From: Bigelowiella natans CCMP2755
Taxonomy: Eukaryota; Protista; Cercozoa
DNA length: 39,336 nucleotides
Assembly: GCA_000320545.1 (NCBI GenBank)
Contig: ADNK01000727.1
Span: forward strand, 1 to 39,336
Direction of reading: 5' to 3'
A program made the translations under genes and the position numbers. Below the pieces are notes generated by a model. The model worked only from the letters and a program-made list of their open reading frames with translations. It made no database searches and was not told the DNA's origin. Of this stretch, positions 4,761 to 39,130 are shown piece after piece; position 1 is the stretch's first letter; each line of letters opens with the position of its first letter.

Positions 4761-4808
<48 letters not shown>

Positions 4809-5067: not shown

Positions 5068-5142
<75 letters not shown>

Positions 5143-5764: not shown

Positions 5765-5818
<54 letters not shown>

Positions 5819-11634: not shown

Positions 11635-11635
11635 C

Positions 11636-11984
11636 AGCAGACTGCTACACCACACCCCACATTTGATTTCCCATCTGCCGTCAGCAGGGGAATGACACAA
11701 AATTTTCATTTCAAAAATTCACCTGCTGACGACCTACTGCTGAACTGAATTGTTAGAATGACATGGCAAAATTGCACGAGCATGACATGTCAAGTGTTCG
11801 ACATTTGATTTCCCATCAGCAATCAGTAGCAAAATGTGCGAAAATGCGCAACATGAAAGCTTCACCTACTGACGACCTGCTGCTGAACTGAATTGCTATG
11901 ATGACATGATGAAAATCACAGGCACAATTATCGAATCCCATGTGTTTTGTGAAAACAATCTTTGTTAAAAATGACATAGCAAAA
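11636..11984 (+). repeat. Left terminal inverted repeat of PLV
   Basis: agcagactgctacaccacacccc... is the reverse complement of 31984-32323 apart from 15 transitions and a 9-bp indel (counted by eye). Confidence 0.95.
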
Positions 11985-12024
11985 AATCATCGCAATGTTG
12001 CCCGTCACTATAGTCTTTGCAAGG

Positions 12025-14007
12025 CTATTGAGGGGAAGTTCTCTCGAAATTGAACACGTCGCAATGGATTTTCACGTCGTCGTTTTTCGGCCAGAAGTGA
12101 GAGGTCTCTCCAATGCGGAACTTATGCATCTGTCCTGGAACAATTCTGGTCCACGCGAATTTTTCGTTGATTCTTTTTGTCGAACGAACCGCAGAAAATG
12201 ATATTCGTTTCGCTCCGATCTGCGTTGCCAAGGTGGAAACATAGTGCATCTTCAAGGTGTGACTCTTGGCATCAGCAACGTTAATGAGATGAAGCACTTT
12301 CTCCCCCTTGAATCGATAGATGCGAACTGCATCGAATGCTGCATTGTTCCATTCCAGAGGCACTGCCCAAACCTGTTCGCCATCTTTCACATCCTCAAAT
12401 ATTTTTTTCAGATCTTCAGTAGTTTCGTATTCGTGGACGGCATGGGCTTTCCAATCAACTGGAGCATTTTTTGAGTCGCAGACGATGACCTTTTTGTCTT
12501 CTGTTTTCATTGCTGCTTTTAGTTGAGCTAAGAAGTCCATCTCCACTACCCAGCCCATGAAAGAAGGGTTTTGAAGGTTTTCGGCAATGTTGTATCCCAT
12601 TTTCACCGCCAAAAAACTGTGCTTGATCACCAGTAGCTTTAACACGTATTTACTCACGAATACTGGATGTTTATTTGTCACCAATCCCGGAGTCTTCAAA
12701 GTGCACACCAGATGGTTTATGGCGTCAGCGCTCTCGTGTCCCGCGGTACCCTTCAAAAGAGATTCTGCGTTTCCCACTTTGTCAATCATCCGATTTATTT
12801 GTCCCTTCACTGTTTTTAGATCTGTTGCAAACATCCATCGTGCAGAATGACCTGCAAAGTAGAACTTCTCGCGGAGCTTCTCGGAAAATTCATTCTCCTT
12901 GTCTAGACAATCGATATACGTACAGACTTCTTTTTGGAATGCCTCGTCCTTTGATGCAGCAAGGTATTGCTCCAATGTCCACGGATGCATTGTATGGCGT
13001 ATCACTTCATCGAAGGCTTCTTTGCCAGCCAAAGACTTTGTAACGATGTTAACCCGTACATTGTCGTAGTGGCATGATTGCTCAAGGGCTTGGTGGTGCT
13101 GTCCATCTATCCTCAGACCATCGAGCACCACGATGTCTGCTTTACTACCATTCAAGGTTCCAGTTGCTACTAATCTCGATTTGTTCAGCTCTCCATCATT
13201 GATAAAGGAGAACATCCGGGCAGCTTTCTTGGTCTCTCCGTTGAGGAAAACCACTGTCGGAGGTCTAGCACGCAAAAAATGGACCCATAAGACGTTCTTC
13301 CCCGCAGTCCACCTCGAGACTGCCCAGCCCCAAGTCGTCACCGATTTCCCAAGTCCAGGTGTTCCAACTATTTCAAGTTCACGCTCCTCCTCCAGCTTAG
13401 TCCAAAGCTCAATGACTTCCTCCCGCCCATACAATCGGAGTTCGCCATTTCCGGTAGCATTGCGCAGACCAGCAATACCCAATCCGCTCACGACGAAGAA
13501 TTTCCCTCTCTGTGGTGTATCTGAAATGTATATCTGCGCTGAAATGTCTTCCCAGTGGGCCTCTTCCCCCCTGCCGCTTTCATCAATTTCCATGGCTGAA
13601 CACACAGGCAAAACTATCTCAGCACACCAATTGCTCATCAGATGTTACAAAAATACATTACCGGTTGCATCCTCGAATTTCTTTGACACGTCCTTCAGTT
13701 CTGCCTCCTTCGCCTGAATTTCCTCGTCCAATTTGTCAATAGCACCCTTGAGCGCCTCTTCTTTCTCCTTATTCTTCTCCGTTGCCCAAGCGATGCTCAA
13801 AGCTTTTCTTTCATCCCTCAATTTCTCGATTTGTTTGCTAATAGAGTCCATCTGATTTCCCCATGCCTCAGAACGCTGAGAACACATCAAAGCTTAAGCT
13901 CCCGAACGCAAGCCTCGTAGGATAAGTACCTGTGCTTTCGAACTTCTCCTGCTAGGGATTCTTTCATCTACCTTCCTTTTCTCGTCAAAAGATCCACTAC
14001 GCTTCAT
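12025..14007 (-). CDS. Crinkler (CRN)-like protein: coiled-coil N-terminus, P-loop NTPase and C-terminal restriction-endonuclease-fold domain; exons 14007-13930, 13875-13662, 13595-12025
   Basis: Walker A GTPGLGKS, Walker B IVVLDG, FYFAGHSARWMF and WNNAAFDAV...HTLK motifs typical of CRN NTPase-REase proteins. Two GT-AG introns (13929-13876, 13661-13596) keep the frame. The true 5' end is uncertain. Confidence 0.8.
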
Positions 14008-14294
14008 CGAGTCTGATTTCGAGTCTGGTGTGAAGATCTTCACGGGAGACTCTCGTTGCGGCGAATCCCCGGAAAGAGCATTACCGGGAGTATTACCGGT
14101 ATTGCCCGTTAGTGTCCGTTAGTGTCCGAAGATTAGGGACTCCCATTTTCATCCCGGAATGCCCAGCAGCGGGGAGAGTCTCCGGTGAAGAACTGACACG
14201 TGTGGCTGATATGGCAAAGACATTAAATGTCAAATTTTCGGGCACACGATGCCTCAAAGCTCCAGCCCAGTGATGGTGTTTTCGTACCCAGGTT

Positions 14295-17200
14295 TCACCC
14301 ATTGATCCTCAAAGCCATCTTCAAACTCAACATCCTGAGGGGTGTACTTACCAAATGCTGGGTATGTTTGTTGGTTATTCTACTAAGATTACACTCCACA
14401 CAAGTTAATCTACAGTTGTTCCAGAGATGGGGTAGATCATTATCAATTCTATCCACAGAAACATTATCAGCAGTAAATCCACATCTACACACAGGGCATT
14501 GTGGATGATTATTAACAGTTCTTTTTATCCATTCCTCATCAATATATTCTTTATCTTTCCAAGTTCTACCAGCTCTTTTGTCCTGAGATTTATATGAAGA
14601 TACTTTCATTCGTAGTTTTTGAGAAATCATACTTTCTTTTAATCTGTAGCATTCTTTATCGCTGTGCTGATATATTTGTATCTGTGATAGGTCAGTTGAA
14701 CGAGTTATAGCAGTCCAGAGCCACTTGCGAGTAATTCTACAGGTGTTAGTATCGAACACGGTAATAGGGCCATCTACTGATAATCCTTGAAAACTATGAC
14801 AGGTAGAGGCATATGATAACCTAAAATGCTTACTAATTAATTCTATAGGAATTCTTATTTCTTCCATATCACATACATCATGTGTTACAAATTCTTTTTT
14901 ATTTACTTTAATAATTTCATAAGTGTAGTTCACATATAGTTTTGGTTTCTTATTGTACTTTTTACATGCAATCTCCATACCAGCATAGTAGCAAATACCA
15001 TCTACATAAACCTTTTTTCTCGGTTTCTTTTGTAGACCGTGGATATACTTACCTACTGAACGGGATCTAAAGTTGTAGAAGGTAATATTGTTAAGAGTCT
15101 TTACTTTATCCATACTTTCAACAACTTTAAAATATTTTTTTAGCACATCAAATGGTTTAGTTTTTACATCAAATATTTCTTGTTTTAATCGTGCAAGAGT
15201 ATTTCTTTCCTCGTCTGTTTTTACTCTCTTACAGATTTTAAGAGTGATTTGATTAGGGAACATATCATTCATAGCTTCAGTTGTTCTAACATCAATGTCT
15301 TTGATGTCATTAAACAGATATTCGTTTTCAATGGGATCCAATTGAGCTAAATCACCAGTAGCAATAAATTTTTTATTAGTATGCTTATCCATAAATAACT
15401 TAATTTTTGATAGTTGATGTATTGAATACATGTAAACCTCGTCAAAGCATATAACATCATGTGGTGAAATATCAAATTTTCTTATGCATTTACATTCGTT
15501 GTTATGAATGTTAAGGCTAAATAATCTATGATAAGTAATAGCATCGTGTCCGCTCTCACGAACATTTTGGCATGATTTATTAAACGGTGCTACGAACAAG
15601 ATTTTTTTACCTTTATATTTTTTAACTGAATAACTCTTACCACTACCAGGTAGTAAAGCATTCACAAGAGTTCTATCATGCTTATCAAATGCGTTTTTAA
15701 TTACTTCTGTATTCCATTCATTCACAATATCAATCTTATTAATGTTAATTGTTTCAGGTTCTGCCACTTCATTTTCTAAAGGAACAAAGTATTGACCCAT
15801 AACCTTAGTTTTTTCCTCCAATTTCACACCACCAATGTCTTTATTAAAATCAAAGTAAGGTTTAATCTTATCAACTTTGTCTCTTACAATGATACAATCA
15901 GTTTCAATAGCTGTAGGATGTAATCCTACAGATGAACATTTATCATATAAATTAAACATCTTAACAGAAACAAGGTCATGTGTCATATCTTTAATAGGTT
16001 TGAATGTTTCTCTTACCAGTTTTTTAGTGGTTCTTACAAGTAAGAATAGATCATCACTGATAGGGTTAATTTCGCCGCCATGTAATTTCTTATAATGGTT
16101 TGCTTCATTCAAATTTTTGTAAATTTTACACACTGATTTATGATTGTATTTCTTCTCAAGCTGTCCTGTAATTTTATTACATATGAATTTATTAGCATTG
16201 ATGGTTCCAAGTTCTGTTTTGTGCAGTTTATCAACTGCTTTGCTAAATTTAACAGCAGCAACATTAGAAGGTCTAATGTAGTGTAGTATATCGTAACTGT
16301 TTTCATTCATTTGTTTCAATTTGAATCCACATGCTCTGTTGTGTCTTTTAGGTAACAAGATGTTGTGAGCTTCACCTCCATCTAAACTCATTACAACACA
16401 CATTGCAAGGTCTTCTACAGAATGATCATCACATTTAACATGATTATCAAAATAATGAAAAATAGGAATTCGAGAGATTGATTTTGAAGCCCAAGTGCAA
16501 CATTCATTAACATCAATGCCATTTCCAACAGCATCATCACTTAGTCTTCCTGCAGCAGGTCCTTTGGGACGTGCTTCATTCATTCTTAATGCTTCATTGT
16601 TAAAAATGCTTGTGTGTTCTTTTTTGATGATTTTTTGATAGAAGTCATCATCTGCTTTCACAAAATTTTCATGGTTGTTTTCATTTGCATCACAAGTAAT
16701 GATGTCATTCACGTTGTCATGGTCAGGATGAGATGTGACACATGGTTCATTGCCAATTCCAAATGACAAAGAAAGCATTCTGTCATGTTGAAAAAATGTT
16801 CTTGGTTCGCATTTGTGAACATTGATCATTTCAATTGACAATTCCCTCATGTCGCCACAATGAAAACATTCAATCCATTCATCATTCACTGTTTCAATGT
16901 GAGATGCGATGTCATTGAGGTTTTCAATGAATTTGAAACAATCACTTTTTTCTTCATCCATTGATCTGAATTTGTGTTTGTTGTGCACTTGTGATGTGCA
17001 TTTGTCACATTCTGCTTCTTTTTTTTTCTGTTCCAATTCTTTGATTTGGTGATTGAGCAAATGAGCATGATCATTGTGAACCATGACTCTGAAGTTTCGT
17101 GGTGAGATGTGCTCATTGTGTTTCTCAGGTGCAAACTTGTCAACTGAATTGTGCACGTCATCGCAAACGGTCAGCCCTGGTTCACATTTCTCAAAAAACT

Positions 17201-18083
17201 TTTTGATCTCTGCCAATGCAACAGCACCATCCTTTTTTTTTTCTTTTTTTCCTGCAATGTTGCAAAGAGCATTGTGAGCAAGATTTTTGCATCTGGATTT
17301 TTCAAATGATTTTTCACATGAGTTCATGACAGCATTGAACATGCAAGAATTCTCTCTGTTGCATTTTTCAGGTTGATGGAATGGTTCACCAAAAGTTTTG
17401 GCATCTTGGTCAATTTCACATTTGAGGCATTTGCAATTCATGGCCACATTGTTGTCATCATCTTTCACCACAATTTGACCAACATCATGATCACTTGATG
17501 ATTTGGAATCATGAGATCCATTGCAAATGATTTTGATGTGATCACCATGTTCAAATGAAGGGTCATTCATTTCCTCAGCCATGTTTTGGTTTCTCATTGA
17601 CACTCCACAAACTTGTCCATCAAGTGATTTTGATTTGATTTTGACAAATCTGCCAATGGCATTTCCAAATGCTTGAGCAGTTTTTTTCAAAACCACACCG
17701 TTGATGGTCATCACATTTGCTGGTCTCAGTCCTTTGTGATTGAATTCATCAACAGCATGTTTTCTTTCTTCATCTGCCCTGCGATGAACAAAAATTGTGC
17801 AACTTGCATTGGTTCCACCATGAATTGTGCGACATGTTTTTTTCAGTTGGCTTTCGTTGAGGTTTCTGAAAGAATTGAGACTGCCATTCACAACTTCAAA
17901 AGGTGATCCTTTGACATTCAATTTGTTGCAAGTTCCACCACCAATCTCAACCAATCGGTTGGTGTTGATGTTGCATCCATGACCATTTTTCATCTCTTTG
18001 TTTTCAATTTCAGTGAAAAGCTTTTGCAAGTTCTTTTTTTGAAGAGAACCAAACTTTCCAAATTTTTTCAAAAAACTTTTCAT
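14295..18083 (-). CDS. Fusion protein: degenerate family-B DNA polymerase, SF1 (Pif1/RecD-like) helicase and C-terminal HNH/EndoVII-like Zn domain; 5' half hypermutated
   Basis: PolB-like motifs GIDVNECCT (A), KFICNKITG (B), AIETDC (C). Helicase motifs PGSGKS, VAPFN, FDEVYM, GDLAQLDP, TCHSFQG, TAITR. C-terminal CPVC...VDRIDNDLPH...CVECN. The start at 18083 is inferred; the ORF track extends to 18365, probably through lost stops. Confidence 0.85.
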   Translation of the reverse strand: MKSFLKKFGKFGSLQKKNLQKLFTEIENKEMKNGHGCNINTNRLVEIGGGTCNKLNVKGSPFEVVNGSLNSFRNLNESQLKKTCRTIHGGTNASCTIFVHRRADEERKHAVDEFNHKGLRPANVMTINGVVLKKTAQAFGNAIGRFVKIKSKSLDGQVCGVSMRNQNMAEEMNDPSFEHGDHIKIICNGSHDSKSSSDHDVGQIVVKDDDNNVAMNCKCLKCEIDQDAKTFGEPFHQPEKCNRENSCMFNAVMNSCEKSFEKSRCKNLAHNALCNIAGKKEKKKDGAVALAEIKKFFEKCEPGLTVCDDVHNSVDKFAPEKHNEHISPRNFRVMVHNDHAHLLNHQIKELEQKKKEAECDKCTSQVHNKHKFRSMDEEKSDCFKFIENLNDIASHIETVNDEWIECFHCGDMRELSIEMINVHKCEPRTFFQHDRMLSLSFGIGNEPCVTSHPDHDNVNDIITCDANENNHENFVKADDDFYQKIIKKEHTSIFNNEALRMNEARPKGPAAGRLSDDAVGNGIDVNECCTWASKSISRIPIFHYFDNHVKCDDHSVEDLAMCVVMSLDGGEAHNILLPKRHNRACGFKLKQMNENSYDILHYIRPSNVAAVKFSKAVDKLHKTELGTINANKFICNKITGQLEKKYNHKSVCKIYKNLNEANHYKKLHGGEINPISDDLFLLVRTTKKLVRETFKPIKDMTHDLVSVKMFNLYDKCSSVGLHPTAIETDCIIVRDKVDKIKPYFDFNKDIGGVKLEEKTKVMGQYFVPLENEVAEPETININKIDIVNEWNTEVIKNAFDKHDRTLVNALLPGSGKSYSVKKYKGKKILFVAPFNKSCQNVRESGHDAITYHRLFSLNIHNNECKCIRKFDISPHDVICFDEVYMYSIHQLSKIKLFMDKHTNKKFIATGDLAQLDPIENEYLFNDIKDIDVRTTEAMNDMFPNQITLKICKRVKTDEERNTLARLKQEIFDVKTKPFDVLKKYFKVVESMDKVKTLNNITFYNFRSRSVGKYIHGLQKKPRKKVYVDGICYYAGMEIACKKYNKKPKLYVNYTYEIIKVNKKEFVTHDVCDMEEIRIPIELISKHFRLSYASTCHSFQGLSVDGPITVFDTNTCRITRKWLWTAITRSTDLSQIQIYQHSDKECYRLKESMISQKLRMKVSSYKSQDKRAGRTWKDKEYIDEEWIKRTVNNHPQCPVCRCGFTADNVSVDRIDNDLPHLWNNCRLTCVECNLSRITNKHTQHLVSTPLRMLSLKMALRING

Positions 18084-18229
18084 TGTGTTGTTGGACACAT
18101 CATCATTGCAGATTGGATTTCTTTGAGTGAGAATCAAACGAATGAAAATTTGAAAAAAATCCATGGTTTTTTTGAGAGTTTTGAAACGACCATGAAATGG
18201 TTTGAAAAGAAAAAATCTGCAGTGTTGCA

Positions 18230-18547
18230 ATGAGCGAAAACAACAAAACATTTGAATCCAAAACTTCAGGACATGTGAAAGAATTCTGCAAAAAGAACTC
18301 TCAAAAATGGCTGCGAAAGGTGGAATGCAAAGCCTGCAATTGCATGATTGGATCAGCATCACCATCTCGACACAAAAGAACCAAAAAACACATGTTCAAT
18401 GGCAATCCTAATCCATCCGAAGAGCAGAAAAAATTTGCAGATGACAACAAATGTGTCAAGTTTGGAAAATGCAAATTGGTCAAATTGGAAGAAAAATTGG
18501 ATTTTGTCATGAAGAAATTGGAAGAGTTAGGAAACAAAACACAATGA
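18230..18547 (+). CDS. Small viral zinc-finger protein
   Basis: CKACNC...SRHKRTKKH pattern followed by a coiled-coil tail. Confidence 0.6.
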   Translation: MSENNKTFESKTSGHVKEFCKKNSQKWLRKVECKACNCMIGSASPSRHKRTKKHMFNGNPNPSEEQKKFADDNKCVKFGKCKLVKLEEKLDFVMKKLEELGNKTQ

Positions 18548-18902
18548 ATGCAATTTCATGATCATCACAATGATTGTTGTGATCATGAAATTGAACAATG
18601 AATGAGTTGAACATTGATGGTTTTTGTTTTGTGACCATCAACATTGTCATTGTGATCATCAACATTTTTGAACCTTGCATGCCAAGATGGTTCACTGCAC
18701 ATTTCTTTCTCTTCAACATTGGGTTTCACAAGACCTGATTTGATCAGCATGTCCCCATTCTGTCCTTTGCAATTGTCAATGTTTTTCATGAATGCTTCTG
18801 CAGATTCATCACTAACTTCAGGTTTTGTTGGAACTTTTTCATCCTTGTCATCGTCACTCATTGTGATGTGACTGCACATTTTGTGATGATTTCAAACGAA
18901 TG

Positions 18903-19154
18903 TCAATCAAATGATGCTGTTGTGCCATCAACTTTTTCAGGAACCTTTGGAATTTCTTTTTTCTTCTTTTCCTCCTCTTTCATTTTTGGTTTGCGAACAT
19001 CCTCAAAATGTTTCTTGTTGCATTTGCTTGTCTTCTCTTTTTTTTCTTGACATCTCTTCTTTTGGCATGCTGTCATTTTTTCTCCATTTGATTTGCAATG
19101 TGCTTTTTGTTTTTCCTCATCAGACATTTGTTGAAATGGTTCAGATTTTTGCAT
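18903..19154 (-). CDS. Small basic viral protein, hypermutated
   Basis: Lys/Glu-rich. Back-mutating C/H to Y gives KAYYKSN...AYQKKRYQEKKEK, a pattern common in viral basic proteins. Confidence 0.45.
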   Translation of the reverse strand: MQKSEPFQQMSDEEKQKAHCKSNGEKMTACQKKRCQEKKEKTSKCNKKHFEDVRKPKMKEEEKKKKEIPKVPEKVDGTTASFD

Positions 19155-19185
19155 TTGAAAAAAATGATCTCAACTCAATTGACAC

Positions 19186-20367
19186 ATGATCAATTTGAGA
19201 GAAACAGAAAAAAGGTTCATGCGACAGTGGAACAATTGTTTTCCATTGATGGAAGAAGACAGAAAAGGAAACAAAGTTCCAAGTGAAGTCAATGTCAATC
19301 ATCTTCTTTGGATGATTTGCAACAAAGACGATGTTGGAGGTGATGGAAAACTTGTGGTGAGAAAAACAGACACTGAGGCAATCAATCCAATTGCAGGAAC
19401 AAGATTGCATTCATCGAACATGGAAAGGTCTTTGATCACGTGTGCTAACAACAACAGATTTGATGTTAGTGATCCAAGTGAAGATTCAAGAACTCCACCA
19501 AGATCATCAACACCGCCAAAAATGATGAGAACACCACAAAGATCACCACCACCACCACCAAGAAGACCACTGCCAAGAAGACCAGCACCAGGAGGACCAC
19601 CAGCACCAGCACCAGGAAATGGACAACAACAGATGGCACAAGAAGAAAAACTACCAGCATTGGCAAGATCAAATGACATTGACAGCAGAGAGACACAAGC
19701 AACACCATCACAAAGATTTGGTCAACAACCAGGTTTCAGTCTGACCCCAGTTGTTCCCACATCAGCACCTGCTGGATTCAAATCAACACCAGGTGACATG
19801 GGTGAGAAAAAATTGACAGATTCATCTTTGAAAGAAATTGAAGAGCACAACGACTTCCAAAGACCTTTACCTGACATTTTGGAAAGACAAAATGCAATCT
19901 GTCAGACCAAAATGAGGCAAGGGTCAATCCAAGAAGCAACTCATCCATTCGGAGGTAAATGCAATGCAACCAATGAATCACAAATCAATCATGACACCAA
20001 TTCTAAAAACCCATTTGTCAAATCTCAAGCAAGATTGAAGGTGAAAGAAACAGATGACACAAGTGAAATTTGCAGACCTCAATTGCAAGAAGCAATCGAT
20101 GATGCCAAACCACCTGCTAAATTGTTAGCAAAGATGGCCAACATGGAAGCACTCAAAGTTGAAGTTCCAGTTGAACCTCCATTCAAAGCAAGAGGTTTTG
20201 ATCCAAAGGAATTGCGACCGGTTTTCAAAATCAATTGCACTCACGGTGCAGTGCCTCATCATGTGTCTCAAGCACACAAAAAGAAGAAAGATGAAGTAGC
20301 AGATGTGCACACCAGCTACACGAAATCCAAACAAATGAAAGATGCCAGTGATCTGTTTTTTCAATGA
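19186..20367 (+). CDS. Viral hypothetical protein with Pro-rich region (possibly read-through of more than one gene)
   Basis: Long ORF with purine-rich coding bias and a PPPPPRRPLPRRPAP tract. Confidence 0.5.
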   Translation: MINLRETEKRFMRQWNNCFPLMEEDRKGNKVPSEVNVNHLLWMICNKDDVGGDGKLVVRKTDTEAINPIAGTRLHSSNMERSLITCANNNRFDVSDPSEDSRTPPRSSTPPKMMRTPQRSPPPPPRRPLPRRPAPGGPPAPAPGNGQQQMAQEEKLPALARSNDIDSRETQATPSQRFGQQPGFSLTPVVPTSAPAGFKSTPGDMGEKKLTDSSLKEIEEHNDFQRPLPDILERQNAICQTKMRQGSIQEATHPFGGKCNATNESQINHDTNSKNPFVKSQARLKVKETDDTSEICRPQLQEAIDDAKPPAKLLAKMANMEALKVEVPVEPPFKARGFDPKELRPVFKINCTHGAVPHHVSQAHKKKKDEVADVHTSYTKSKQMKDASDLFFQ

Positions 20368-20411
20368 TCATCGTTTCATCATGATCATCATTGTCTGTCA
20401 CAATTGCAACA

Positions 20412-21152
20412 ATGACCAAAAAAGCATGTGAAAAATTGGACACAAAACCCACATTGAAAAATGAATCTGAACAGATGCACAACAATTGCGGCTCAATTCC
20501 ATCTTTTCCTAACAGATGCTTGTTCACAGCTCCTACTGGATCAGGTGAAAGTGTTGCAACAGTGAATTTGCTCACTCGCAAAAGATGTTCAAGAAACTTC
20601 TTTGATGTCATTTCATTTTGCTCGCCCAATGTGAATTGCGAAGAAGAACACACAGAAATGAAAACAAAAAACGAAAAAGCAGAAACAAAATTTGAAGAAA
20701 AGTTCAAAGAGAAAGAGTTTGGTGCTGTGGTTGACAAATCAATGAAAGAACAAAAAGAACTAAAAGACAAAAAGAAACCCATGAAAAAAATGTTGGTGAT
20801 CATTGATGATTTCGCTTCAGATGAAAAAGTGATGAAAAGTGAAACATCAAAAGATTTGTTCTTTGCTGGTAGAAAACATGGTGTGTGTGTTTGGATCACC
20901 AGTCAGCATCACAAAATGGTTCAACCAGATGTTAGAACCAATGCGGAACATCTCATTGTGTTCAGTAGGCAACCCTCGAGTGAATTGAAAAAGATGGCTG
21001 AAGAAACATCAATGGGTGAATGCACCAAGAAAAAAATCATGGAAATGTTTGATGAAACATCCACCATGGATTGTTCATTTTCACATTGCAACAGAAAACA
21101 AAACATGAATGAAAGGTGCATGATTGATTTTCAAAGTTTTGTGAACATCTAA
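20412..21152 (+). pseudogene. A32/FtsK-like DNA packaging ATPase with Walker A Lys mutated
   Basis: APTGSGES (from GKS), VIIDDF, GRKHGVCVWITSQ, VRTN. Confidence 0.9.
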
Positions 21153-21441
21153 ACATGACCAATGTGGATGAACTTTTGCCAGAATTGCATTCAAAAAAAT
21201 CAGGAACAAATCATCATCATTCAACAGTCGTCCAAAAAAAAATAGCAAATCCTTTTTTGCATTTGAAAAAACCAGCTGCACATTCACCTCCAAAAAAACC
21301 AGCTGCACATTTGCCTCCAACAAAACCAGCTGGTTTTTTTGCGAGAGAATTTGTGAGAAAAGAAGTGCCTGTGAGCATCAAACGAACATTCAAAAAGCAT
21401 CAAATGTCAATTGATCATTGTCCAAATGTTGATGATGACAC

Positions 21442-22330: not shown

Positions 22331-22416
22331 TTTGCATTCCATGGATTGTGGAATGATCATCATGAACAGTCATGAACAAAATGCTGTGATGATTTTTTTC
22401 TGTTCTTGTGATGACA

Positions 22417-23310
22417 ATGGGATTGTTTGATGAGACAAAAGATGGAATCAAAAAAGCTGCTAATGATGCACAAAAATCATCAGGACACATCAGTAGACAA
22501 ACAAAAAAAGACTTTGCAAAAGCAGGAGATGCTGTCAAAGATGTGTCCATCATGGCAGGTGATGAAATTGAAAAAGGAGCCCATGAAGTTGGAGATCAAC
22601 CAAAAAAACAAGAAGTCCAACAAGCATTGGCTGGAACTGGAATGGCCATGGCCAATGTCGCTACAGGAGGGGCATTTGCTCCAGAACCAATGGCAGGTGG
22701 ATTGGCAATTCAAGGTGCCATTGAGTCAGCACATTCAAAATCTTCACCTCATGACACTGTGCCACAGGCAGGAACCGCATGTGCCACTGGTGAATTGGAT
22801 TTTGACAAAAGAGGACCAGGTGTTGGTTCATTTGGCGAAGGCATTTCTGATTTGAGAGAAGAAGGTGTGAAACGATTTGATGGTGTCAAAGACAAATTGT
22901 CAGATGAAGCTGTGAAAAGACATGATGATGTGAAAGGCAAAGTGTCAGCAAGATCAGGATTTGATCCAACACAAATGCAATCTGCAGATGAAGCCATGGA
23001 TTCATTGAAAGCACAAATTGATGGGAATGGAAGATCAGAGCAACAGCTGGTGGATTTGAGAAGTGGAAAAGCATCAGAAAATTTGACAAACAAAGCAAAA
23101 AGTGAATTGAAAAAAGAAGCAAGTAGTCAAGGCAATGAAATGCTAAATGATGTTTCAGGTGAAGTGTCTCAAAAGAAAAGCAAAGTGAAAAAAGCCACAA
23201 AAAAAGTCAAGAAGAAGGTGAAATCTTCTGAAGGTGAAATGGCTGATGTCATCAAAAAGGTGAAACAAAATCAACAGAGATGCAGAATGTCAAGTGCCAT
23301 TGTGAATTGA
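22417..23310 (+). CDS. Viral hypothetical Lys-rich protein upstream of MCP
   Basis: ORF MGLFDETKDG... with an Ala/Gly hydrophobic segment and a basic C-terminus. Confidence 0.55.
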   Translation: MGLFDETKDGIKKAANDAQKSSGHISRQTKKDFAKAGDAVKDVSIMAGDEIEKGAHEVGDQPKKQEVQQALAGTGMAMANVATGGAFAPEPMAGGLAIQGAIESAHSKSSPHDTVPQAGTACATGELDFDKRGPGVGSFGEGISDLREEGVKRFDGVKDKLSDEAVKRHDDVKGKVSARSGFDPTQMQSADEAMDSLKAQIDGNGRSEQQLVDLRSGKASENLTNKAKSELKKEASSQGNEMLNDVSGEVSQKKSKVKKATKKVKKKVKSSEGEMADVIKKVKQNQQRCRMSSAIVN

Positions 23311-23377
23311 AAAAAAAAACATCACAAAAAAATCACATTCGTTTCAATGCAATTTTTTTTGTCTGCACATTGTCAAT

Positions 23378-25069
23378 GTGGATGCAATTAGCAAAACTAC
23401 CGATGTTAGCAGTTGTGAAACTACCGATGTTGGTAGATTTCCAGAAATCGACTACAGTTTGCCCCCCATGGATGAAATTTTTGTTGATTCAGTCTCTTGT
23501 TTTAGAGAAGAGATGAAAAACAGCAACAATGCTAAAAAAGCAAATGCAAAAATGAGATTTTTCATTCCAGCTCAACAAAGAGCAGTTGACCCATCTGAAT
23601 TGTGTTTTCAATTGAACGTTGCTGCCAGAACAGCTGGAGATGCTGATTTACCAGCGGTTGACCAATCAAGATTGAGACTTGCTGAAGGTGGAGTTCATTC
23701 TCTCTTTGGAGAGATGATCATCAGAGATGGTGGAGGCAATGTCATTGAAAAAATTGACAACTGTGACCTCATTGCTGAAATTTTGCAAGACACTTTGTCA
23801 ACCAAAGAAGTCAAAAACAATTTGTTGAATGTGGAAGGTGTTTGTGATGACCAAGGATTGTTCAACACAGTTCATGGCAAATTCAATGTCAATGGCAACA
23901 CCTTGGAATTGAAAGCACCTGTGGCTCAGGTCGTAGCTAATGCTCTTCCAGCAGGACAAGCTGATTGCAATGCTGCTGCCAATGCTGCTGCTGTTGTAGC
24001 TGTGACCACTCCCGCTTCACCATCAAGAGCACTTGGTGTAGGAACTCAATTCTTGACTCAACTAAGACCAGGTTCTGTTGTCAAATTTGATGGAAATGGT
24101 CACACAGTTGCTTGTGTTGTGTCTGATGCAGAATTTGCATCTGCTACTGACATTGCTGCTGATGTTGCTGCTGCTAACATTGTTGTTGGCAGAGATTTTG
24201 TTGAAGGATTGCTTGAAACAGAAAGTCGTTGCAAAAAATTCCATCACGATGGACTTTTCACACCAGATGGAGCTGTTCATTGCTTCCAACCATGCTGCTC
24301 CGGATTTTCATCTCAAAACAAATGCCTTCATCTTGATCATCATGGTGGGTTGGAATTTGAATTCACTTTGGACAGCAATGCTGTGATTTTCGATGACACT
24401 GACACAAACAACAATGCTAACATTTTCATCAAAAAAGGACATGTCCATTGCACTGCTCTTGAATTCAGTCCAGTTGTTGAAGCAGCACTTGCCAAGGCAC
24501 ACATGAGAGGTTTGTCTGTGAGTTTCCCAGTTCACCATGTAGTTAGTAGAACACAAAATCCTTCTACCTCTGTTTCTCAGGAACATCAAGAAAGTTTAGC
24601 AATTCTCAAAATGGTCAAAATTGTTGGTAGACCAACTGGGTTTGACACAAACACTGGAGCATCATTTTTCTTTGAAGATCCAACCAGTGCCAAAAGAATT
24701 CACTGGGAGATCAACAAACAAAGATTTACTGAGTGTGGCAATGATGACATTTCACCTCAAGTTGTTTTCATGAATGACAGAATTGGCAAAAATCTGTTAG
24801 GAGATTGCAAACATGCCACAATTTCTCATGGAGAATTCAAAGAAGCAGGCAAATCTGCTTCAATTTTCAACACCCAAAACTGCAAAGAAGGCAATCACAC
24901 AGGAGTCAACACCAACCGAGCAACCATGAGACTCAAAATTGAAGGAGGAGATGGTGTTGGTTCCTCACAACCTGGCATTGTCAATCAAGGCAGACAAATC
25001 GATGTGTCAATGATGCACGAGCAACACATTGTGTTGAAAGATGGAGACAGTCTCACAGTGAGATCTCAA
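23378..25069 (+). CDS. Major capsid protein (double jelly-roll, PLV type); ancestral stop TAA inferred to have become CAA at 25067-25069
   Basis: MRFFIP...VDPSELCFQLNV...GGVHSLFGEMII...IEKIDNCDL resembles PLV MCP N-termini. Size about 560 aa, placed directly before the penton. Confidence 0.75.
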
Positions 25070-25123
25070 ACTTTTGTCATTCTCAAATTCCACCAAAATT
25101 TGCATCACAAAAATTCACTTCTA

Positions 25124-25852
25124 ATGCAAATCAATGTGAAACAACACAAAATTCATTTCAACAGCAAAGACAGAATTGCTGGAACAACCAACAATTCAAA
25201 TTGTCAATTGAACAGTGCAATTGATGATGCATCTTCTGTTTCCATTGCAAGAGTGAGATTTCCAATTACTTGTTGCAATGTGTCAGCTAAAAATGACATT
25301 TTGGAAATTGAGAACAGTTCTGGAAACAAAACAAGCATGGAATTGACAAAACAAAATTGTGGTGCTACTGAATTAGTGACAGAATTGCAAACTGAACTTT
25401 CAACTAATGCCTCATCAGTGGGAACTTTCACTCCTACACGCAATGCTGAAACAGGTAAATTCAGCATGGGTTGCAGTGACAATTTCAAAATGACCAAAAA
25501 CGAATGCTCTAAGTTTTTAGGTCATGATGACACTGCACCCCTTTCTGCATTGCATGTAGCAGATGACATGAGTGATCTGTCACCAAAACCTGTTCATGTC
25601 CAAACTGATTTGCAACTGGATGCAGAATTAGCAGGTCAATCATCAAACATGGTTTGTGAAGTTGGTGGCGATGTTTCTTTTGGTAGCATTTTGCATGACA
25701 ATGAAAAACCAAGTGAAAGGATTGAATCAATGAAAAAAAAGAATGCAAGCAACTTGAAATTTGCACTTGTAGATGGAGATGGAGATGAAATTGAAAACAA
25801 TGGTGTGGATTGTTCCATGACAGTGTCTTTGTTTCATGAGACTAATGAATGA
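25124..25852 (+). CDS. Minor capsid protein (penton, single jelly-roll)
   Basis: IHFNSKDR...SIARVRFPITCCNV...FALVDGDGDEIENNGVDCSMTV matches the penton pattern (SxDR...PxxxYNV...DxxGxxI). Confidence 0.78.
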   Translation: MQINVKQHKIHFNSKDRIAGTTNNSNCQLNSAIDDASSVSIARVRFPITCCNVSAKNDILEIENSSGNKTSMELTKQNCGATELVTELQTELSTNASSVGTFTPTRNAETGKFSMGCSDNFKMTKNECSKFLGHDDTAPLSALHVADDMSDLSPKPVHVQTDLQLDAELAGQSSNMVCEVGGDVSFGSILHDNEKPSERIESMKKKNASNLKFALVDGDGDEIENNGVDCSMTVSLFHETNE

Positions 25853-28062
25853 GAAAAAAAAATGTCCAATTGTTGTCAATGAAAATGAGTGTTAGCATCA
25901 CAGGTGAAAATGTCCCCAACCCCAATGCATCTGGTGGAACAAACAATGATGATCCATCAACAGGAGAAACAGATGGCATTGCAAGCAATTCAAATGACAT
26001 CAATTTTGATGAAGGTGCATCTGTGAATGGCACAAAATTTCAAAACACAGGAAATCAAAACGGACTTTTTGTGGGTCGTGATTTGTCTGGTAATTCGTCC
26101 ATGGAAATGGTCTCTCCAACAACCTGCATTGATTTTGTGCATCAATCAGGATCTGATTGTGCGAATCGCATTCTGTCAAATGATGATGGTGTTCACTTCA
26201 CAGGGGATTTGCACATGGGCATCATTGGACCCAATTGTGCATCTTCAAATCAAATGGCATCCACGACAGGAACTTTCAATGGAATCAATTTAGACGGAGT
26301 CCCTTTGAATCCAAGAAATTCTTCAGTTCACGGGATTGCATCTGACATTGCAAGTGGAAACATGAAATTTGCTGCAAATTCCAATTTTCAAGAAAAATTG
26401 ACTGCATTGGGTGATTTCAATCTTTCAAATGAAACAACAAATGATTCCATCAATGGATTAGTTGTGACAGGAAACAAAATCACATCATTAGATGACCTTG
26501 CAATGAAACATGTAGCCACAGGATCATCAGAGAATTTGCAATGCACAGCACAATTGTCCAATTTCACAGATTCATCACAAAACAACATGCCATCAACACC
26601 ATCAATGTTGTGCAATGAAAATGTTGACAATTTTGAAAGATTGACAGTTGGACAACCTGACCCTGACGATGCCTTTGGAATGGATGTTCATCAGAACTCC
26701 GGTGATGATTGCATGGGCAACACATCAACTGTTTGTGCAAAAAACAATTTGAGCATTGCAGAAAACGGTGAATGTTTTCAAGCCACACCTACTCAATTGA
26801 ACAGACGGACATTGTTCAATCAAAATGATGATTTCAGTTCTCAACCTGAAGAAATCACATCAGTTGGTTCCAATGATGACACAAATTGGACTCACATTCA
26901 AGATTGCAGTTTTGCAACTGAGAGAATGGTGGGTGATGCATTTGTTTGTTTTCAAATAGCTACGAGTGTTGATGATTTGAAAACCAAAGTCCCCCTTTCT
27001 GCCATTTCAAGTGTTCAATTGTCACAAGTTCAAGGGACATCGGTCAATGGTAGGGTTCACATCGATGAAAACATTGAAACAAACAACAATTTTTGTGAAC
27101 ATCACAGATGGATTGCAAAAAAGATGGAGGCATTTGATCACTGGAGCATGAACGAATTAGAATCATTTGGTTTTGAAAAAAAGGATGTCAATGTGAATCA
27201 AGAAGTTCTAAAAATGAAAGATGTTGAAACAAAAACAACAACATTGGAAACTGAAACAACCACATTAGAAACAAAAACAACAACAACAGAAAACAAACTT
27301 GATCCAATTACTTTGTCTAACAACGAACATCAATTTTCAAGTTCCATTTTTGCAAATGGTTTGAGAAGCACAACACAACCTCACATCGATGGTGTTTGTT
27401 TGGGAAAAGATGTTCATGATGGCAGTAGCATTGAATTCGTTAGTCCAACATGCTGCATTGATTTCGTTCATGACAATTTGGGAACAGATCATGCGAATCG
27501 CATTTTGTCCAATGATGATGGCATTCACATCACAGGGGATTTGCATGTTTTCAACACGAAAATTGCTGGAGATGTCACATTTCAAGGTTCATTGTTGTCG
27601 AACACATTGACAGATTCAACAAATGGATCAAGTGCAATTGAAGCATCAGCAACAAGTGATGGCAATGATGTTCAAAATGGATCAATTGATGCAAATGTCC
27701 CCATCATGCGAGTTGCCAATGATTCTTCTTCCATTGTCTTTTTTGAAAGTGGTGATCAGCCACCTTTTCATGATCCTCGTGCAGAAAGTGGCAAATCTAC
27801 CGTTTCAGAATGTGCTTCAAATGTTGTGTCATCAAATGTTCGTTCATCATCTCCATCGTGTGATTTGTTTGATCTCACAGCAGACAAAGCAGTTGGTGTG
27901 AATTCTGGTTCTGATCCCAACATGCCAACTGGAGCTCAACACAGAGTCGAATTAAATGGTCAGAATTTTGTCACTTTTGCTGTTTCCAATCCACAATTCG
28001 TTTGGAATGAAAAAAAAACATGCAGTTACATTGCAATCATGTGGATGATGTTAGCAATGTGA
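25849..28062 (+). CDS. Fibre/spike-like virion protein with a duplicated module
   Basis: Two copies of G..xGxD...S.E.VSPT.CIDFVH...D.ANRILSNDDG.H.TGDLH, plus a short TTTLET coiled-coil repeat. Asn/Ser/Thr/Gly-rich. Confidence 0.6.
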   Translation: MRKKNVQLLSMKMSVSITGENVPNPNASGGTNNDDPSTGETDGIASNSNDINFDEGASVNGTKFQNTGNQNGLFVGRDLSGNSSMEMVSPTTCIDFVHQSGSDCANRILSNDDGVHFTGDLHMGIIGPNCASSNQMASTTGTFNGINLDGVPLNPRNSSVHGIASDIASGNMKFAANSNFQEKLTALGDFNLSNETTNDSINGLVVTGNKITSLDDLAMKHVATGSSENLQCTAQLSNFTDSSQNNMPSTPSMLCNENVDNFERLTVGQPDPDDAFGMDVHQNSGDDCMGNTSTVCAKNNLSIAENGECFQATPTQLNRRTLFNQNDDFSSQPEEITSVGSNDDTNWTHIQDCSFATERMVGDAFVCFQIATSVDDLKTKVPLSAISSVQLSQVQGTSVNGRVHIDENIETNNNFCEHHRWIAKKMEAFDHWSMNELESFGFEKKDVNVNQEVLKMKDVETKTTTLETETTTLETKTTTTENKLDPITLSNNEHQFSSSIFANGLRSTTQPHIDGVCLGKDVHDGSSIEFVSPTCCIDFVHDNLGTDHANRILSNDDGIHITGDLHVFNTKIAGDVTFQGSLLSNTLTDSTNGSSAIEASATSDGNDVQNGSIDANVPIMRVANDSSSIVFFESGDQPPFHDPRAESGKSTVSECASNVVSSNVRSSSPSCDLFDLTADKAVGVNSGSDPNMPTGAQHRVELNGQNFVTFAVSNPQFVWNEKKTCSYIAIMWMMLAM

Positions 28063-28613
28063 GAGAAACTTCAAAAGGTCACAGAGCAACACAATCAAAA
28101 GAATCATGTCGTGAAGTAGGAATGTCTCAATGTGCCAGAAACAAAAAAACTTTGACAGATGGGTTGACACCTGTAGTTCTAAAAAGTGCTGGTCATGAAG
28201 TCATTTCTGTTGAAAAAGAAGAGGAGGTAAAAAAACCAGCTAAAACAATCAAAAGAGTTCCAGTTGAAAATGGTGTCAAAAAGAAAGAAGAGGAAAAAGT
28301 AGAGGAAGAAAAAATTGGTCTTGAATCAAAAGAAGACAGTAATGATGAAAAAGTGAGCATGGAAATGGAAGAAGATGGTGATGATGAGAGTTCAGCAACA
28401 GAATCAGATGTGGAAAATTGACTCTGTTCATGTGATGGAAGGAACAATGATTGTTTCATTGACTTTGGGTGTGTGTGTGATGATTGGATGCACACTTGGT
28501 GGAGTGTCGGCATCAATTACTGATTTAGACCCTGCTAACGATCATTTGATTGCAAGTTGAAAAAACATTTTTTTGAAATTTTGTTCACAAAAATCATCCA
28601 AATCTTTGCAACC

Positions 28614-29218
28614 ATGAGTTCTTCTGCCGCACATTTCCGCAATTCAGTTTCAATTGATGGATTGCTTGCCGGTCCTACCATTGTTGGAATGGACACCGAA
28701 AAAACTGCTGTTCTTGACAGTCTCAATCAACAAATTTCTGACTTTCAAATGGCAGAAACAAACAATGCTCAAGCAAGAGCAGATTTGCAAAATCAAATTG
28801 ACAATGCTAATGCTTCCATGACTCAGGCCATGGGTGATTTGACCCAACTTGTTGATGACAACAAAGCAGATGTTGAAGGCAAATTGGCAACAGAAACCAA
28901 TGAAAGACTTTATTGGCAAGTGAAGCAAGCAACAGAAATGCATTTGTAGATGGTGAAATTGCCAGACTTGACCAACAACATGCTGATGATGATGCCAGAC
29001 TTGCAGCTGTTGAAGCAACACAAGCTACTTTCAATTCAGATGTGGAATCCAAAATTCAAGAGAGAATCGATGCTCACAATGCTGATCTTGACAATGCCCT
29101 TCCTCGTTTAGCAAAATTAGAACATTGTGTTGAAATCGATGAATCAGGAACAGAACCAGTTGCAAGAATCAAAGGAGGTGTCAAATTTGAAGCAAGTGGT
29201 GATTTCGTCCAAGGTTAG
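28614..29218 (+). pseudogene. Coiled-coil viral protein with a frameshift near 28910
   Basis: ORFs 28557-28949 and 28913-29218 overlap and continue the same heptad-like sequence (ATETNER / ASEASNR). Confidence 0.55.
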
Positions 29219-29241
29219 ATCACAAATGTGATTCAAATGAC

Positions 29242-29520
29242 ATGCAAAAAATCCAACAATTAATGACAATGTCCAATGTCAAAGGTGGTGGTGCCATTTT
29301 TGAAGAAACACCTACAATGGCAAATGATGTAGCAGGTCAAACAATGGACACCATTGATCAACAATTGAACGATGATGATGCCCAAAATGCAGAAAACAAA
29401 TTGCAACTTGATTTTTCAAAAGAAGTTTTCACAATGGACAAAGAAAACAAAACTGTTGCGATGAATCCTGAACATGAACTCATCATTCCTAATGATTCAA
29501 TTCAAGGATGGTTCGTTTGA
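29242..29520 (+). CDS. Small viral hypothetical protein
   Basis: ORF with the same coding bias as its neighbours. Confidence 0.4.
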   Translation: MQKIQQLMTMSNVKGGGAIFEETPTMANDVAGQTMDTIDQQLNDDDAQNAENKLQLDFSKEVFTMDKENKTVAMNPEHELIIPNDSIQGWFV

Positions 29521-29551
29521 AACAGCACAGTTTTTTCATGGTCATGATGTG

Positions 29552-30169
29552 ATGACCATGAAAAAAGTGCATTTTTGCAGATCAACGTGTTCAAATGCAA
29601 GAGAAACACACATAGGTTCTGCCACTATGGATCCAAAATTGAGATTGCAAATGCATCTTGCTAATTTCAGAGCATGTGAAAAAGGTTTTGGTAATTTTTG
29701 CTCTTCGCATCAAATTTTAAAAAGAGACAATTGTGTGTTCAAAGTTGTGTTGGAAAAGGATGCTAAAAAAATGTCCGTTCATCAGAAACGAAAGAAAGAA
29801 GCAGAACTAACAGCTGAAGAAAAAACAAAAAGAAAATGTGTCAACAAAAATGTTCCAGGTAGAGATGTGAAACAATGTGGAACAGATGACAGAGATCACA
29901 TCAATTGTCATGCCAGAGATCATCATGAAGACAAAACAAAACACGATGAAACATGCTGTCCCTTCTGTGATGGACATGTGATCAAAAAATGTCACAAACA
30001 TCATGTGCACACTGAAAAGTATGCAAAAAATCTTCTCAAATCAAATGATGAAATCAAAAACACCAATGAAAGTGAGAAAGAAAGCAAGATTAGCATTGAA
30101 ATTGAAAAAATTAGGTTGGAAAGGAATGACAGAGACAGGAATGAACAGAGCAAAGCAATTAGCATGTGA
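29552..30169 (+). pseudogene. GIY-YIG endonuclease, hypermutated
   Basis: KVHFCRS...THIGSAT...RLQMH...CVNKNVPGR reads as VY...YIGST...R...H...VNK after restoring TA. The 3' end is probably extended by read-through. Confidence 0.75.
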
Positions 30170-30791
30170 CGATGCTGTGGACATTGAAGACATTGTGGTG
30201 ATGAATGCTTGGTTTAGAAGACATCAATGCGTGTCAAAAATGGGTCATGATGAATGGAAAGCACAAGGGAAACCAATGGATCAAGGACAAAGAAACAAGA
30301 GAAGAGGTGCCGCAAGTTGGGCCGGATGGGGGGGAGATGCTGGTTTTGATTGGATCAATGGCAAAAAGGTTCAAGATGAAATTGAAAAATGCAAGACAAG
30401 CAAGAATGAAAAGCATGTTCCAAAATCTCTCAGCAAAGAAGACAGGAAAAAACAAACAGAGAGCATTTTTTGTGGTGGAGACAGACCAAAGTTGAGAAGT
30501 TTCAAAAGCAAGAAATCCAAATGGACTGTTGAAGCTGACAAGCATTTCAAAGGTGACACATCCTTGTCCAACATGACCAAAGTTTCAGATGTTCCTTTGA
30601 AATCTTCAAGAGAAATTGTGAACAAAGGCAAAGGAGCTCACCATTCTGGAGGCAGTCGTCCAAATCAAAGTGCCGAGTCTTGGAGCAGAGCCCGTCTGTG
30701 TTCTGTTTCACTTGGAGGTCCCAGTCGTGACATTGACAAAAAGATTGCAAGCAAATGTGATGTTCCTTCATTGGAACAAAAAAATCTGTAG
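30045..30791 (+). CDS. Two-domain viral hypothetical protein (WGGDAG domain plus a domain resembling DUF5824 from memory)
   Basis: RAKQLA...AWFRRH...WAGWGGDAGFDW, then VPKSLS...VNKGKGAHHSGGSRPNQSAESWSRARL. Family assignment is from recall and needs an HMM check. Confidence 0.55.
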   Translation: MMKSKTPMKVRKKARLALKLKKLGWKGMTETGMNRAKQLACDDAVDIEDIVVMNAWFRRHQCVSKMGHDEWKAQGKPMDQGQRNKRRGAASWAGWGGDAGFDWINGKKVQDEIEKCKTSKNEKHVPKSLSKEDRKKQTESIFCGGDRPKLRSFKSKKSKWTVEADKHFKGDTSLSNMTKVSDVPLKSSREIVNKGKGAHHSGGSRPNQSAESWSRARLCSVSLGGPSRDIDKKIASKCDVPSLEQKNL

Positions 30792-30982
30792 CAATGCAAT
30801 GTTGAAAAAATCAACCAAAAGACAGAAAGATTTGTTAGCAGCTCACTAGCTCACAGCAAGCATCATGGCAAAAACATGTGGCTTCTGTGAGAATGAATCC
30901 AATGTTGGGTGAAACTTTCAAAGAAGCACACGAGATGGCAACTGAAAAGCATGGCAAGTGAATGATTTTTGTTGTTGTCATC

Positions 30983-31199
30983 AATGACAACAAATCTCAT
31001 TGAATGTTTGTTGAAAACAATGGAATTAGAGAAACGATCAAAAAAATTAGAAGAAAGGATGAACAAATTGCAAAAAATTGACAAGTTGTTGATGACAGAA
31101 AACAGTGATTTGTTTGTCAAATTGCAAATTGTGAAAAAACCATTTGATTTCAATGAAGATGTGAAATGGGCTGTGTGTGACATTTTGGTAGATGATTGA
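30983..31199 (+). CDS. Small coiled-coil viral protein
   Basis: ORF with a heptad pattern. Confidence 0.35.
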
Positions 31200-31927
31200 G
31201 TGCCAAGATGTTTTTTGCATTCATCTTCTAATTTGATGTTGTCTTTGTCATTTGATTTTTCACAATGTTCTCTAAATGACTTGTCAAAATTCTTTGATTT
31301 GACATCATTAGGTGACACATTTCCAATTGTTCCTTCAACACTGCCATCACTGCATTTCACTTTGAAGGTAGCAGGTTCTTGATGGTCATTTTTCTTTGCT
31401 TTGTTTGCATGGTCTGACATTTCAACGATGCATTTCTGCTTTTTGTTTCGCAAATTGCATGCAGGTTTTGACTCAATGTCTGCAAGTTTTTTGAATTGTT
31501 CATGATCTGGCATTCTCATTGATTTGCTCAATCTCATCAATGTCCTTTCATCGCCTCTGTCCACTAACAAGTTGTTTTTTTTGGCACACTGTTTCAATTT
31601 CAGTTCATGTTTGTGAACCATGGAGTTTGTAGCTGCCACTTTTTCACTCTTTTCAGTGATGAACAAATGATGCAATTTGCAACCCATCCAGGGCCTTTTG
31701 CCATCAGTGCATCCATGACATGACATGTGATCTTTTGATCTTGATGCTGGTTGAGTTCCCTTGCCTTGCCCAAATTCAACAACAAGTTCTTCAGTGGATT
31801 TCCTTTTGCATGTGTCCATGTCAGACGACATTGCATGCAAAAATCTTTTGTTCTTCAAAGATCCAAATTGTTTTTCAGTCAGCCATTCATCTGATGGTTT
31901 TCCTTTTTTTGATTTGAATGTTCTCAT
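31196..31927 (-). CDS. Lys-rich viral hypothetical protein next to the right TIR
   Basis: 5' two-thirds of ORF 30863-31927. The remainder looks like antisense read-through after a lost stop. Confidence 0.5.
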
Positions 31928-31983
31928 TTGTCACTTTGGGTGAGAATGAATTCACAGTGTTTTCAACGATGCTCTGCTGTGGA

Positions 31984-32323
31984 TTTTGCCATGTCATTTT
32001 TGACAAAGATTGTTTTCACAAAACACATGGGATGTGCCTGTGATTTTCATCACGTCATCATGGCAATTCAGTTCAGCAGCAGGTCGTCAGTGGGTGAAGC
32101 TTTCACGTTGCGCATTTTCGCACACTTTGCTGCTGATTGCTGATGGGAAATCAAACGTCGAACACTTGACACGTCATGCTCGTGCAATTTTGCCATGTCA
32201 TTCTGACAATTCAGTTCAGCAGCAGGTCGTCAGCAGGTGAATTTTTGAAGTGAAAATTTTGTGTCATTCCCCTGCTGACGGCAGATGGGAAATCAAGTGT
32301 GGGGTGTGGTGCAGCAGTCTGCT
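31984..32323 (-). repeat. Right terminal inverted repeat of PLV
   Basis: Reverse complement of 11636-11984. Confidence 0.95.
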
Positions 32324-33853: not shown

Positions 33854-33863
33854 ATTCGCGTCT

Positions 33864-33871
33864 GAGGGAGG
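33864..33871 (+). promoter_or_regulatory. Polypurine tract
   Basis: GAGGGAGG immediately before the 3' LTR TG. Confidence 0.75.

Positions 33872-36069: not shown

Positions 36070-39130
<3,061 letters not shown>

Follow-up and report, generated by a model that had tools for sequence, protein, structure and literature searches.

Flanking-base preferences of TpA hypermutation at a virus-carrying retrotransposon of Bigelowiella natans, with ApT as a weak, late second target

Contig ADNK01000727.1 of the Bigelowiella natans CCMP2755 assembly GCA_000320545.1 (39,336 nt, hereafter the window) holds a long terminal repeat (LTR) retrotransposon that carries, within its pol gene, a virus-like element bounded by terminal inverted repeats (TIRs), with intron-bearing host genes on both sides. 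The foreign DNA is depleted in TA dinucleotides (TpA steps), and the present analysis concerns the sequence contexts in which they were lost or kept. The original prediction for this locus had held that CTA and TAG steps resist the mutator, that ApT is its secondary target and that a link to adenine methylation (6mA) of the AMT1/MTA1 type is possible. The features of the window are as follows (ORF, open reading frame; RT, reverse transcriptase).

3600-6960: exons of the host gene Nup54; TA content normal
7624..8169, + strand: 5′ LTR; six TA steps kept
8221..11633, + strand: gag-protease-RT-RNase H part of the LTR retrotransposon (Pfam RVT_1, RT_RNaseH); TA count 0
11634-32325: virus-like element, with an A32-type ATPase and an SF1 helicase
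11634..11985, + strand: left TIR of the virus; nine TA steps
12000..16400: left arm of the virus, lightly mutated, the baseline for TA contexts; 288 TA steps
12025..13638, - strand: intact 537-aa ORF inside the virus, with Crinkler/RHS-like features (Atlas feature matches 0.98-0.99)
14295..18365, - strand: large replication ORF with SF1 helicase domain (Pfam AAA_30, UvrD_C_2), crossing the border between the lightly mutated and TA-free zones
16750..18250: TA-free zone of the virus
18300..31700: middle of the virus
20412-21152: A32-type ATPase (Pfam match just over cut-off)
23468..25852, + strand: 794-aa capsid-like ORF, subject of the site-level survival test
31984 (about)..32325, - strand: right TIR; zero TA
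32326..33870, + strand: integrase half of the retrotransposon; a single TA (CTAG, 33207)
33871..34416, + strand: 3′ LTR; zero TA
37679-37822: host PX-domain exon; TA content normal

The retrotransposon is bordered by a 4-base TGCG duplication, and its ORF matches JGI Bigna1 model P0005 at 100 % identity across 64 % of the query. No clear target-site duplication was found at the virus ends (11630-11635 and 32324-32329); the retrotransposon frame continues across the insertion as in relative P0007, and both TIR junctions are therefore assigned to one insertion. The virus ORFs have sisters in the same genome (80-92 % to other Bigna1 models). In relatives, two distinct genes (of 515 and about 240 aa) correspond to the 794-aa ORF; they probably represent the major and minor capsid genes, and a Pfam search of these relatives returned no named family. 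As TA-to-TG/CA changes make no stop codons and may remove them, wrecked genes stay open or fuse, which gives them an intact look to gene callers.

TpA erasure of foreign DNA is a known process in B. natans. The main text of a mutation-accumulation preprint (bioRxiv 10.64898/2026.01.13.699255) reports that viral-origin DNA is mutated about 1000-fold faster and that 230 of 231 mutations in two regions were A>G/T>C, all on TpA. It describes the process as active, host-regulated and found in some lines only, and proposes an ADAT2-like deaminase (candidate Bn78255). The terms 'ApT', 'flanking', 'context', '6mA' and 'TAG' are absent from that main text; information on flanking bases may be given in Figure 2B and Table S2 of the preprint. 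Our literature search returned no other account of flanking rules for B. natans TpA hypermutation, and a search of the text of bioRxiv 10.64898/2026.05.21.726589 found no mention of Bigelowiella, TpA or mutagenesis. Since TpA hypermutation has already been described, the present finding concerns the fine detail of a known process.

Both host flanks have a TA ratio of 0.80, versus 0.00-0.19 in the retrotransposon and most of the virus (retrotransposon interior, 0.00-0.01; virus middle, 0.11). TA loss is confined to foreign DNA at this locus, with the left virus arm only lightly affected (ratio 0.87 in part of it). TA density is 85-104 per kb at 14300-16400, 0 at 16750-18250 and ~11 per kb in the virus middle, and a single TA remains in the 2.7 kb from the right TIR to the 3′ LTR. 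Changes were recorded at 44 of the 49 TpA sites in the TA-free part of the helicase ORF and at all eight aligned TIR TAs. Tyr is almost absent from the proteins, and both strands are affected alike, with Tyr codons changed to TGY 16 times and to CAY 19 times.

The two TIRs differ by 15 substitutions and one 9-base indel over 342 aligned bases. Our recount agrees with the original prediction that every substitution is A/T on the left and G/C on the right, with eight at TpA and seven at ApT; as ApT makes up 63 of the 189 non-TpA A/T bases of the left TIR, finding 7/7 at ApT has P = 5e-4. The LTRs differ at 26 of 546 positions, comprising nine adjacent CA<>TG pairs, six single TpA differences and two single differences (7736 and 8129) that lie at ApT, as had been stated. 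No transversions were found among the 15 TIR and 26 LTR differences. CA<>TG pairs number nine between the LTRs and none between the TIRs, from which it follows that the left TIR was not independently mutated and that its ApT sites were in that state at the time the right copy was altered; the left TIR is the state at insertion. The same contrast suggests that the retrotransposon was mutated first and that the virus was inserted later, with later hits chiefly on the right side. A point on which the original prediction was silent is that, in six of the nine ApT differences between TIRs or LTRs, one copy reads CpA/TpG and the other CpG. The six TA steps kept in the 5′ LTR are all TAG, as previously claimed, and six of the nine LTR pairs resolve to CTA/TAG contexts.

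Between positions 16750 and 32000 of the virus, 120 of the 141 TAs are CTA or TAG, compared with 63/210 in the light zone at 14300-16400 (P = 2e-25) and 163/384 in host DNA. Random TA removal (3 x 500 runs) gave CTA/TAG shares of 0.30-0.43, with a maximum of 0.59, against the observed 0.85, which bears out the expectation that survivors are not random across flanking contexts. That surviving virus TAs are mostly CTA or TAG holds for 16750-32000 but not for the lightly mutated left arm at 12000-16400 (96/288). When TA steps are classed by both flanking bases (NTAN) in strand-symmetric fashion, the 141 survivors divide into TTAG/CTAA 68, GTAG/CTAC 47, GTAA/TTAC 16, ATAG/CTAT 4, TTAA 3 and one each of ATAA, ATAC and CTAG, with ATAT and GTAC at 0. 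The ATA/TAT classes account for 6/141 survivors versus 103/210 steps in the light zone, while TTAG/CTAA and GTAG/CTAC together account for 115/141 versus 45/210.

Comparisons with sisters and relatives were made at the protein level, where non-synonymous changes alone are visible. In the 794-aa ORF, TTAG/CTAA and GTAG/CTAC sites were kept at 17/27 positions versus 4/64 for the rest (P = 2.5e-8), and ATAG/CTAT at 0/7. Relatives have a TA-coded residue at 22 of 23 informative survivor sites, indicating that the surviving TAs are old. Hits, counted by the base after A in the window's light zone pooled with eight partly hit sister proteins, fell on TAT 29/140, TAC 12/84, TAA 19/204 and TAG 1/39 (TAG versus the rest, 1/39 vs 60/428, P = 0.045; TAT versus TAA, P = 0.004). 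The resistance of CTA/TAG was therefore drawn too widely in the original prediction: it is limited to TTAG/CTAA and GTAG/CTAC, and probably CTAG too, since ATA/TAT overrides TAG and ATAG/CTAT is not spared. This resistance is a delay and not immunity. In the wiped copy P0001, nearly all TA classes have been hit, as in the window's own TA-free zones.

Of five tests carried out on the DNA of the window itself, three gave an excess of ApT changes over other non-TpA changes. Counted against other non-TpA A/T bases, ApT changes amount to 7/63 vs 0/126 in the right TIR (P = 4e-4), 6/46 vs 1/353 in the integrase half compared with sister P0006 (P = 1e-5) and 4/123 vs 0/292 in the TA-free part of the helicase ORF (P = 0.007). 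The gag-pol comparison with P0006 covers 728 aligned residues; the P0006 model is without the RT part, and rows beyond residue 735 were excluded. Codon tests on the helicase ORF used sisters and relatives P0001-P0004, leaving aside 16 columns for which A>G/T>C does not account and columns without a residue common to a sister and a relative. Sister 'CA' rows were not counted as support because proteins cannot separate CA<>TG pairs at codon borders from CpA hits. The direction toward G/C is fixed by relatives at several codons (M>V, F>L, I>V, Y>H>R). The ApT ratio of the integrase half (0.64) is the lowest in the window, and a simulation removing TpA alone left the ApT ratio unchanged.

The ApT changes also have a context of their own. 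In a pooled list of 25 (a set excluding one Tyr-to-Arg codon reachable by two routes, sister-side changes and three later cases in the capsid-like ORF), position -2 is A in 20 (background 0.29) and T in 5, and position +2 is G in 18 (background 0.38). The base before the target is A in eight of the 25, and A or G in 12. Sites of the form A-V-A-T-G were changed at 6/13 positions in the TIR, as against 0/35 for ApT sites without A at -2.

Several results weigh against these readings. In gag-protease the ApT excess falls short of significance (4/110 vs 5/487, P = 0.065), and it is lacking in the capsid-like ORF (3/130 vs 6/340), where resistant TAs remain and two of the three ApT changes have C at -2. 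In the TA-wiped sister P0001, 0/81 unambiguous ApT sites are changed, and CAT changes (3/30) show no excess over other CA changes (3/29); 63 unexplained columns were excluded from the P0001 ApT count, and P0055 (35-37 % identical) was excluded both from that count and from the sister resistance count. ApT depletion in the hottest zone is no stronger where -2 is A, the pooled list is small and partly made of repeated motifs inside one TIR, and A-V-A-T-G was derived from the same data that score it. For TpA, the resistant classes lack confirmation from sister proteins taken by themselves (3/48 vs 37/310, P = 0.33), although the direction is the same. All DNA-level counts come from one locus. Finally, all 230 A>G/T>C mutations reported in the main text of the preprint lie on TpA, placing ApT at no more than about 1 % of real-time events. 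With 0/230 there, ApT hits would be rare in real time and become visible only after TpA is exhausted, which matches their location at the window.

The pattern is nonetheless real and beyond chance, and refines the recently described B. natans process. The part of the original prediction that named ApT as a secondary target is borne out in the TIR, integrase half and helicase ORF, without a significant excess in gag-protease or the capsid-like ORF and with no ApT change in P0001. The counts favour ApT as a weak target that is reached late, where TpA is exhausted, at a rate far below that of TpA and within its own A-V-A-T-G context. The broader claim, that the pattern reflects a mutator's sequence preference, is supported, with old survivors at 22/23 sites and an ApT excess in 3/5 tests.

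Judged from the sequence pattern, a single host enzyme probably underlies the flanking rule, and a DNA adenine deaminase preferring 5′-A-T-[A]-T-(G)-3′ is the most likely kind. We infer both that one enzyme serves the two targets and that adenine, not the paired thymine, is the attacked base. In the proposed target site, T at -1 would be nearly obligatory, T at +1 would help and G at +1 hinder, A at -2 would help and C hinder, and G at +2 may be favoured. Because each TA step offers a target A on each strand, a step would last only if both strands read poorly. Under this rule, TTAG/CTAA and GTAG/CTAC would persist and any ATA/TAT, ATAG/CTAT included, would be lost first, with the resistant TA classes lost too under long or intense exposure. 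A-V-A-T-G sites, which have no upstream T but hold the other favoured bases, would be attacked last and at a far lower rate.

The window matches the process described in the preprint in species, in TpA to TpG/CpA changes on both strands and in its targets (virophage-like DNA and retroelements), and differs in adding a ranking of NTAN classes and the weak, late ApT target. TpA is not alone in being hit at the window, since ApT changes occur in its TA-free zones. As its cumulative dose is far higher than that behind the 230 new mutations, we regard the window as an extension of that process and not a separate system; the narrower resistant classes and the ApT target are new, whereas TpA erasure of foreign DNA was known.

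Deriving a logo from NTAN classes compared with relatives, the check proposed in the original prediction, sets the mutator apart from ADAR enzymes and TadA-derived editors. ADAR enzymes would likewise give A>G through A-to-I and favour U/T before A, a parallel drawn in the text of the preprint, but they act on double-stranded RNA and like G after A. ADAR1/ADAR2 are described with a 5′-UAG motif (PMC10661471), whereas TAG was the slowest context here (1/39) and TAG/CTA steps are the survivors at the window, an opposite preference. TadA-derived editors, as reported in PMC8989541 and bioRxiv 10.1101/2020.07.05.186544, also make A>G changes in DNA, with activity highest after T and lower before A; however, they favour C after A, dislike A before A and freely edit non-TA sites, whereas at the window T is the best base after A, hardly any non-TA sites were changed and a preceding A is accepted at ApT (8/25). 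Fungal repeat-induced point mutation (RIP), as described in the preprint, resembles the B. natans process in destroying foreign or repeated DNA by dinucleotide-specific transitions. RIP makes C>T changes and raises A+T, whereas A>G/T>C changes in B. natans raise G+C, and in the preprint's account the process acts on a single-copy region.

The same sequence rule could arise if the attacked base were the opposite-strand thymine, for instance if TET/JBP-type oxidation made it pair with G. Because both TpA and ApT are self-complementary, the sequence does not tell A>G from T>C, and the data fit attack on either base. TET/JBP-made 5-hydroxymethyluracil does mark dinoflagellate repeats (PMC11572971), but that account describes silencing and not mutation, and near-pure transitions at one dinucleotide suit a deaminase, of which the preprint names an ADAT2-like candidate; attack on thymine is thus unlikely. 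Another possibility is that the TpA rule is real and the ApT changes are its by-products, arising as double hits at old TAT, as bystander changes next to TA or as CpG decay read in reverse. It would account for the six of nine TIR/LTR cases that are CA/TG vs CG, for the Tyr-to-Arg columns (CGT four times, CGC once), for the 18/25 ApT hits that are ATG, the product of ATA, and for the absence of ApT among the 230 preprint mutations and of changes at the 81 ApT sites of P0001. We consider it rather unlikely, as the lack of CA<>TG pairs in the TIRs means that the left TIR took no independent TA hits, 12/25 hits have A or G before A and could be neither double hits nor CpG decay, and none of the CpGs common to both TIRs has decayed. 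The low CpG ratio of the virus also follows from TpA removal alone (simulated 0.44 to 0.25; observed 0.25), and a second process behind it was dropped as an explanation on that ground.

Polymerase eta makes A>G changes at TA and AA in antibody hypermutation. A TA hot spot of this kind, in an error-prone polymerase or a repair patch, would explain A>G at TA and is compatible with the strands being equally hit (TGY 16, CAY 19), yet it is improbable here: the second target is ApT and not ApA (AAA/AAC/AAG changed at 0/145 in the TA-free helicase ORF), other A/T bases changed at 0/126 in the TIR, and transversions are missing from the TIR/LTR differences. The suggested origin of the ApT changes in AMT1/MTA1-type 6mA did not survive. 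ApT is indeed the AMT1 context (PMC7145601) and B. natans has a METTL4 gene, but Supplementary Table 1 of PMC12695648 lists for this species AMT1 0, AMT6/7 0, AMT2/5 0 and METTL4 1, so that the link is largely refuted by gene content. Where 6mA is present, the same source places it on expressed genes and not transposons, with little mutagenic effect and little ApT depletion. The ApT hits at the window resemble the TpA hits in what they favour at -2 and +1, and they increase with TpA dose, which makes a methylation origin very improbable. Least credible of all is that the CTA/TAG steps are new, formed by C-to-T loss at CAG/CTG after TA loss, or were kept by protein selection. TAG/CTA is the product of CAG/CTG deamination, but relatives have a TA-coded residue at 12/13 informative sites on that route, CAG is not depleted in the middle zone (0.95), and the 6/9 LTR pairs that resolve to CTA/TAG show such sites being lost. 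Against selection, Tyr is almost gone from the proteins and survivors occur in the non-coding LTR too; both versions are refuted at this locus.

Additional observations concern the virus, its copies and its borders. In the helicase gene, sister P0002 has the same polarity as the window (start without Tyr, later part light), and sister P0001 is wiped along its whole length; mutation may have spread from the start of the helicase gene or from a divergent promoter region. The virus gene at 15000-17200 is multi-copy, and its copies diverged mainly by transitions in all four read runs. In run X2, this stretch has A>G at 109 places, T>C at 122, C>T at 80 and G>A at 99. Among the best-supported 40 of the 551 differing places there, TpA accounts for 30 of the 32 sites with G/C in the window, and CAT/CGT for the remaining two. 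The Crinkler/RHS-like NTPase ORF at 12025-13638 (- strand) lies just inside the left TIR and has a host-like G+C of 0.47; Pfam returned a weak AAA match alone, below the cut-off. The TA-poor stretch extends slightly past the 3′ LTR (34420-35795) and includes a 223-residue stop-free frame (35124-35795, - strand) with no Pfam match. A 16-letter TIR pattern was found at 119 loci in metagenome contigs, none similar to the window by blastn, and scans of viral contigs returned zero relatives of the virus.

The five-base logo, the ranked sites and the second target provide a test for any candidate enzyme, such as an ADAT2-like protein, and the logo already argues against a preference like that of ADAR, a process like that of polymerase eta and methylation by AMT1. 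Inserts can be ranked by dose, and TA-erased DNA of other organisms can be compared with that of B. natans. A natural, strictly TA-specific A-to-G DNA mutator would also be of interest to base-editing work. More tentatively, B. natans may have its own kind of DNA adenine deaminase, with consensus 5′-A-T-[A]-T-G, the reverse of ADAR at +1 and much stricter than TadA editors, and this enzyme would erode foreign DNA in a constant order. If so, the order ATA/TAT, then TTAG/GTAG, then A-V-A-T-G would make each foreign insert a dose clock and would give a fingerprint by which the enzyme could be identified, including in further lineages whose DNA is TA-erased.

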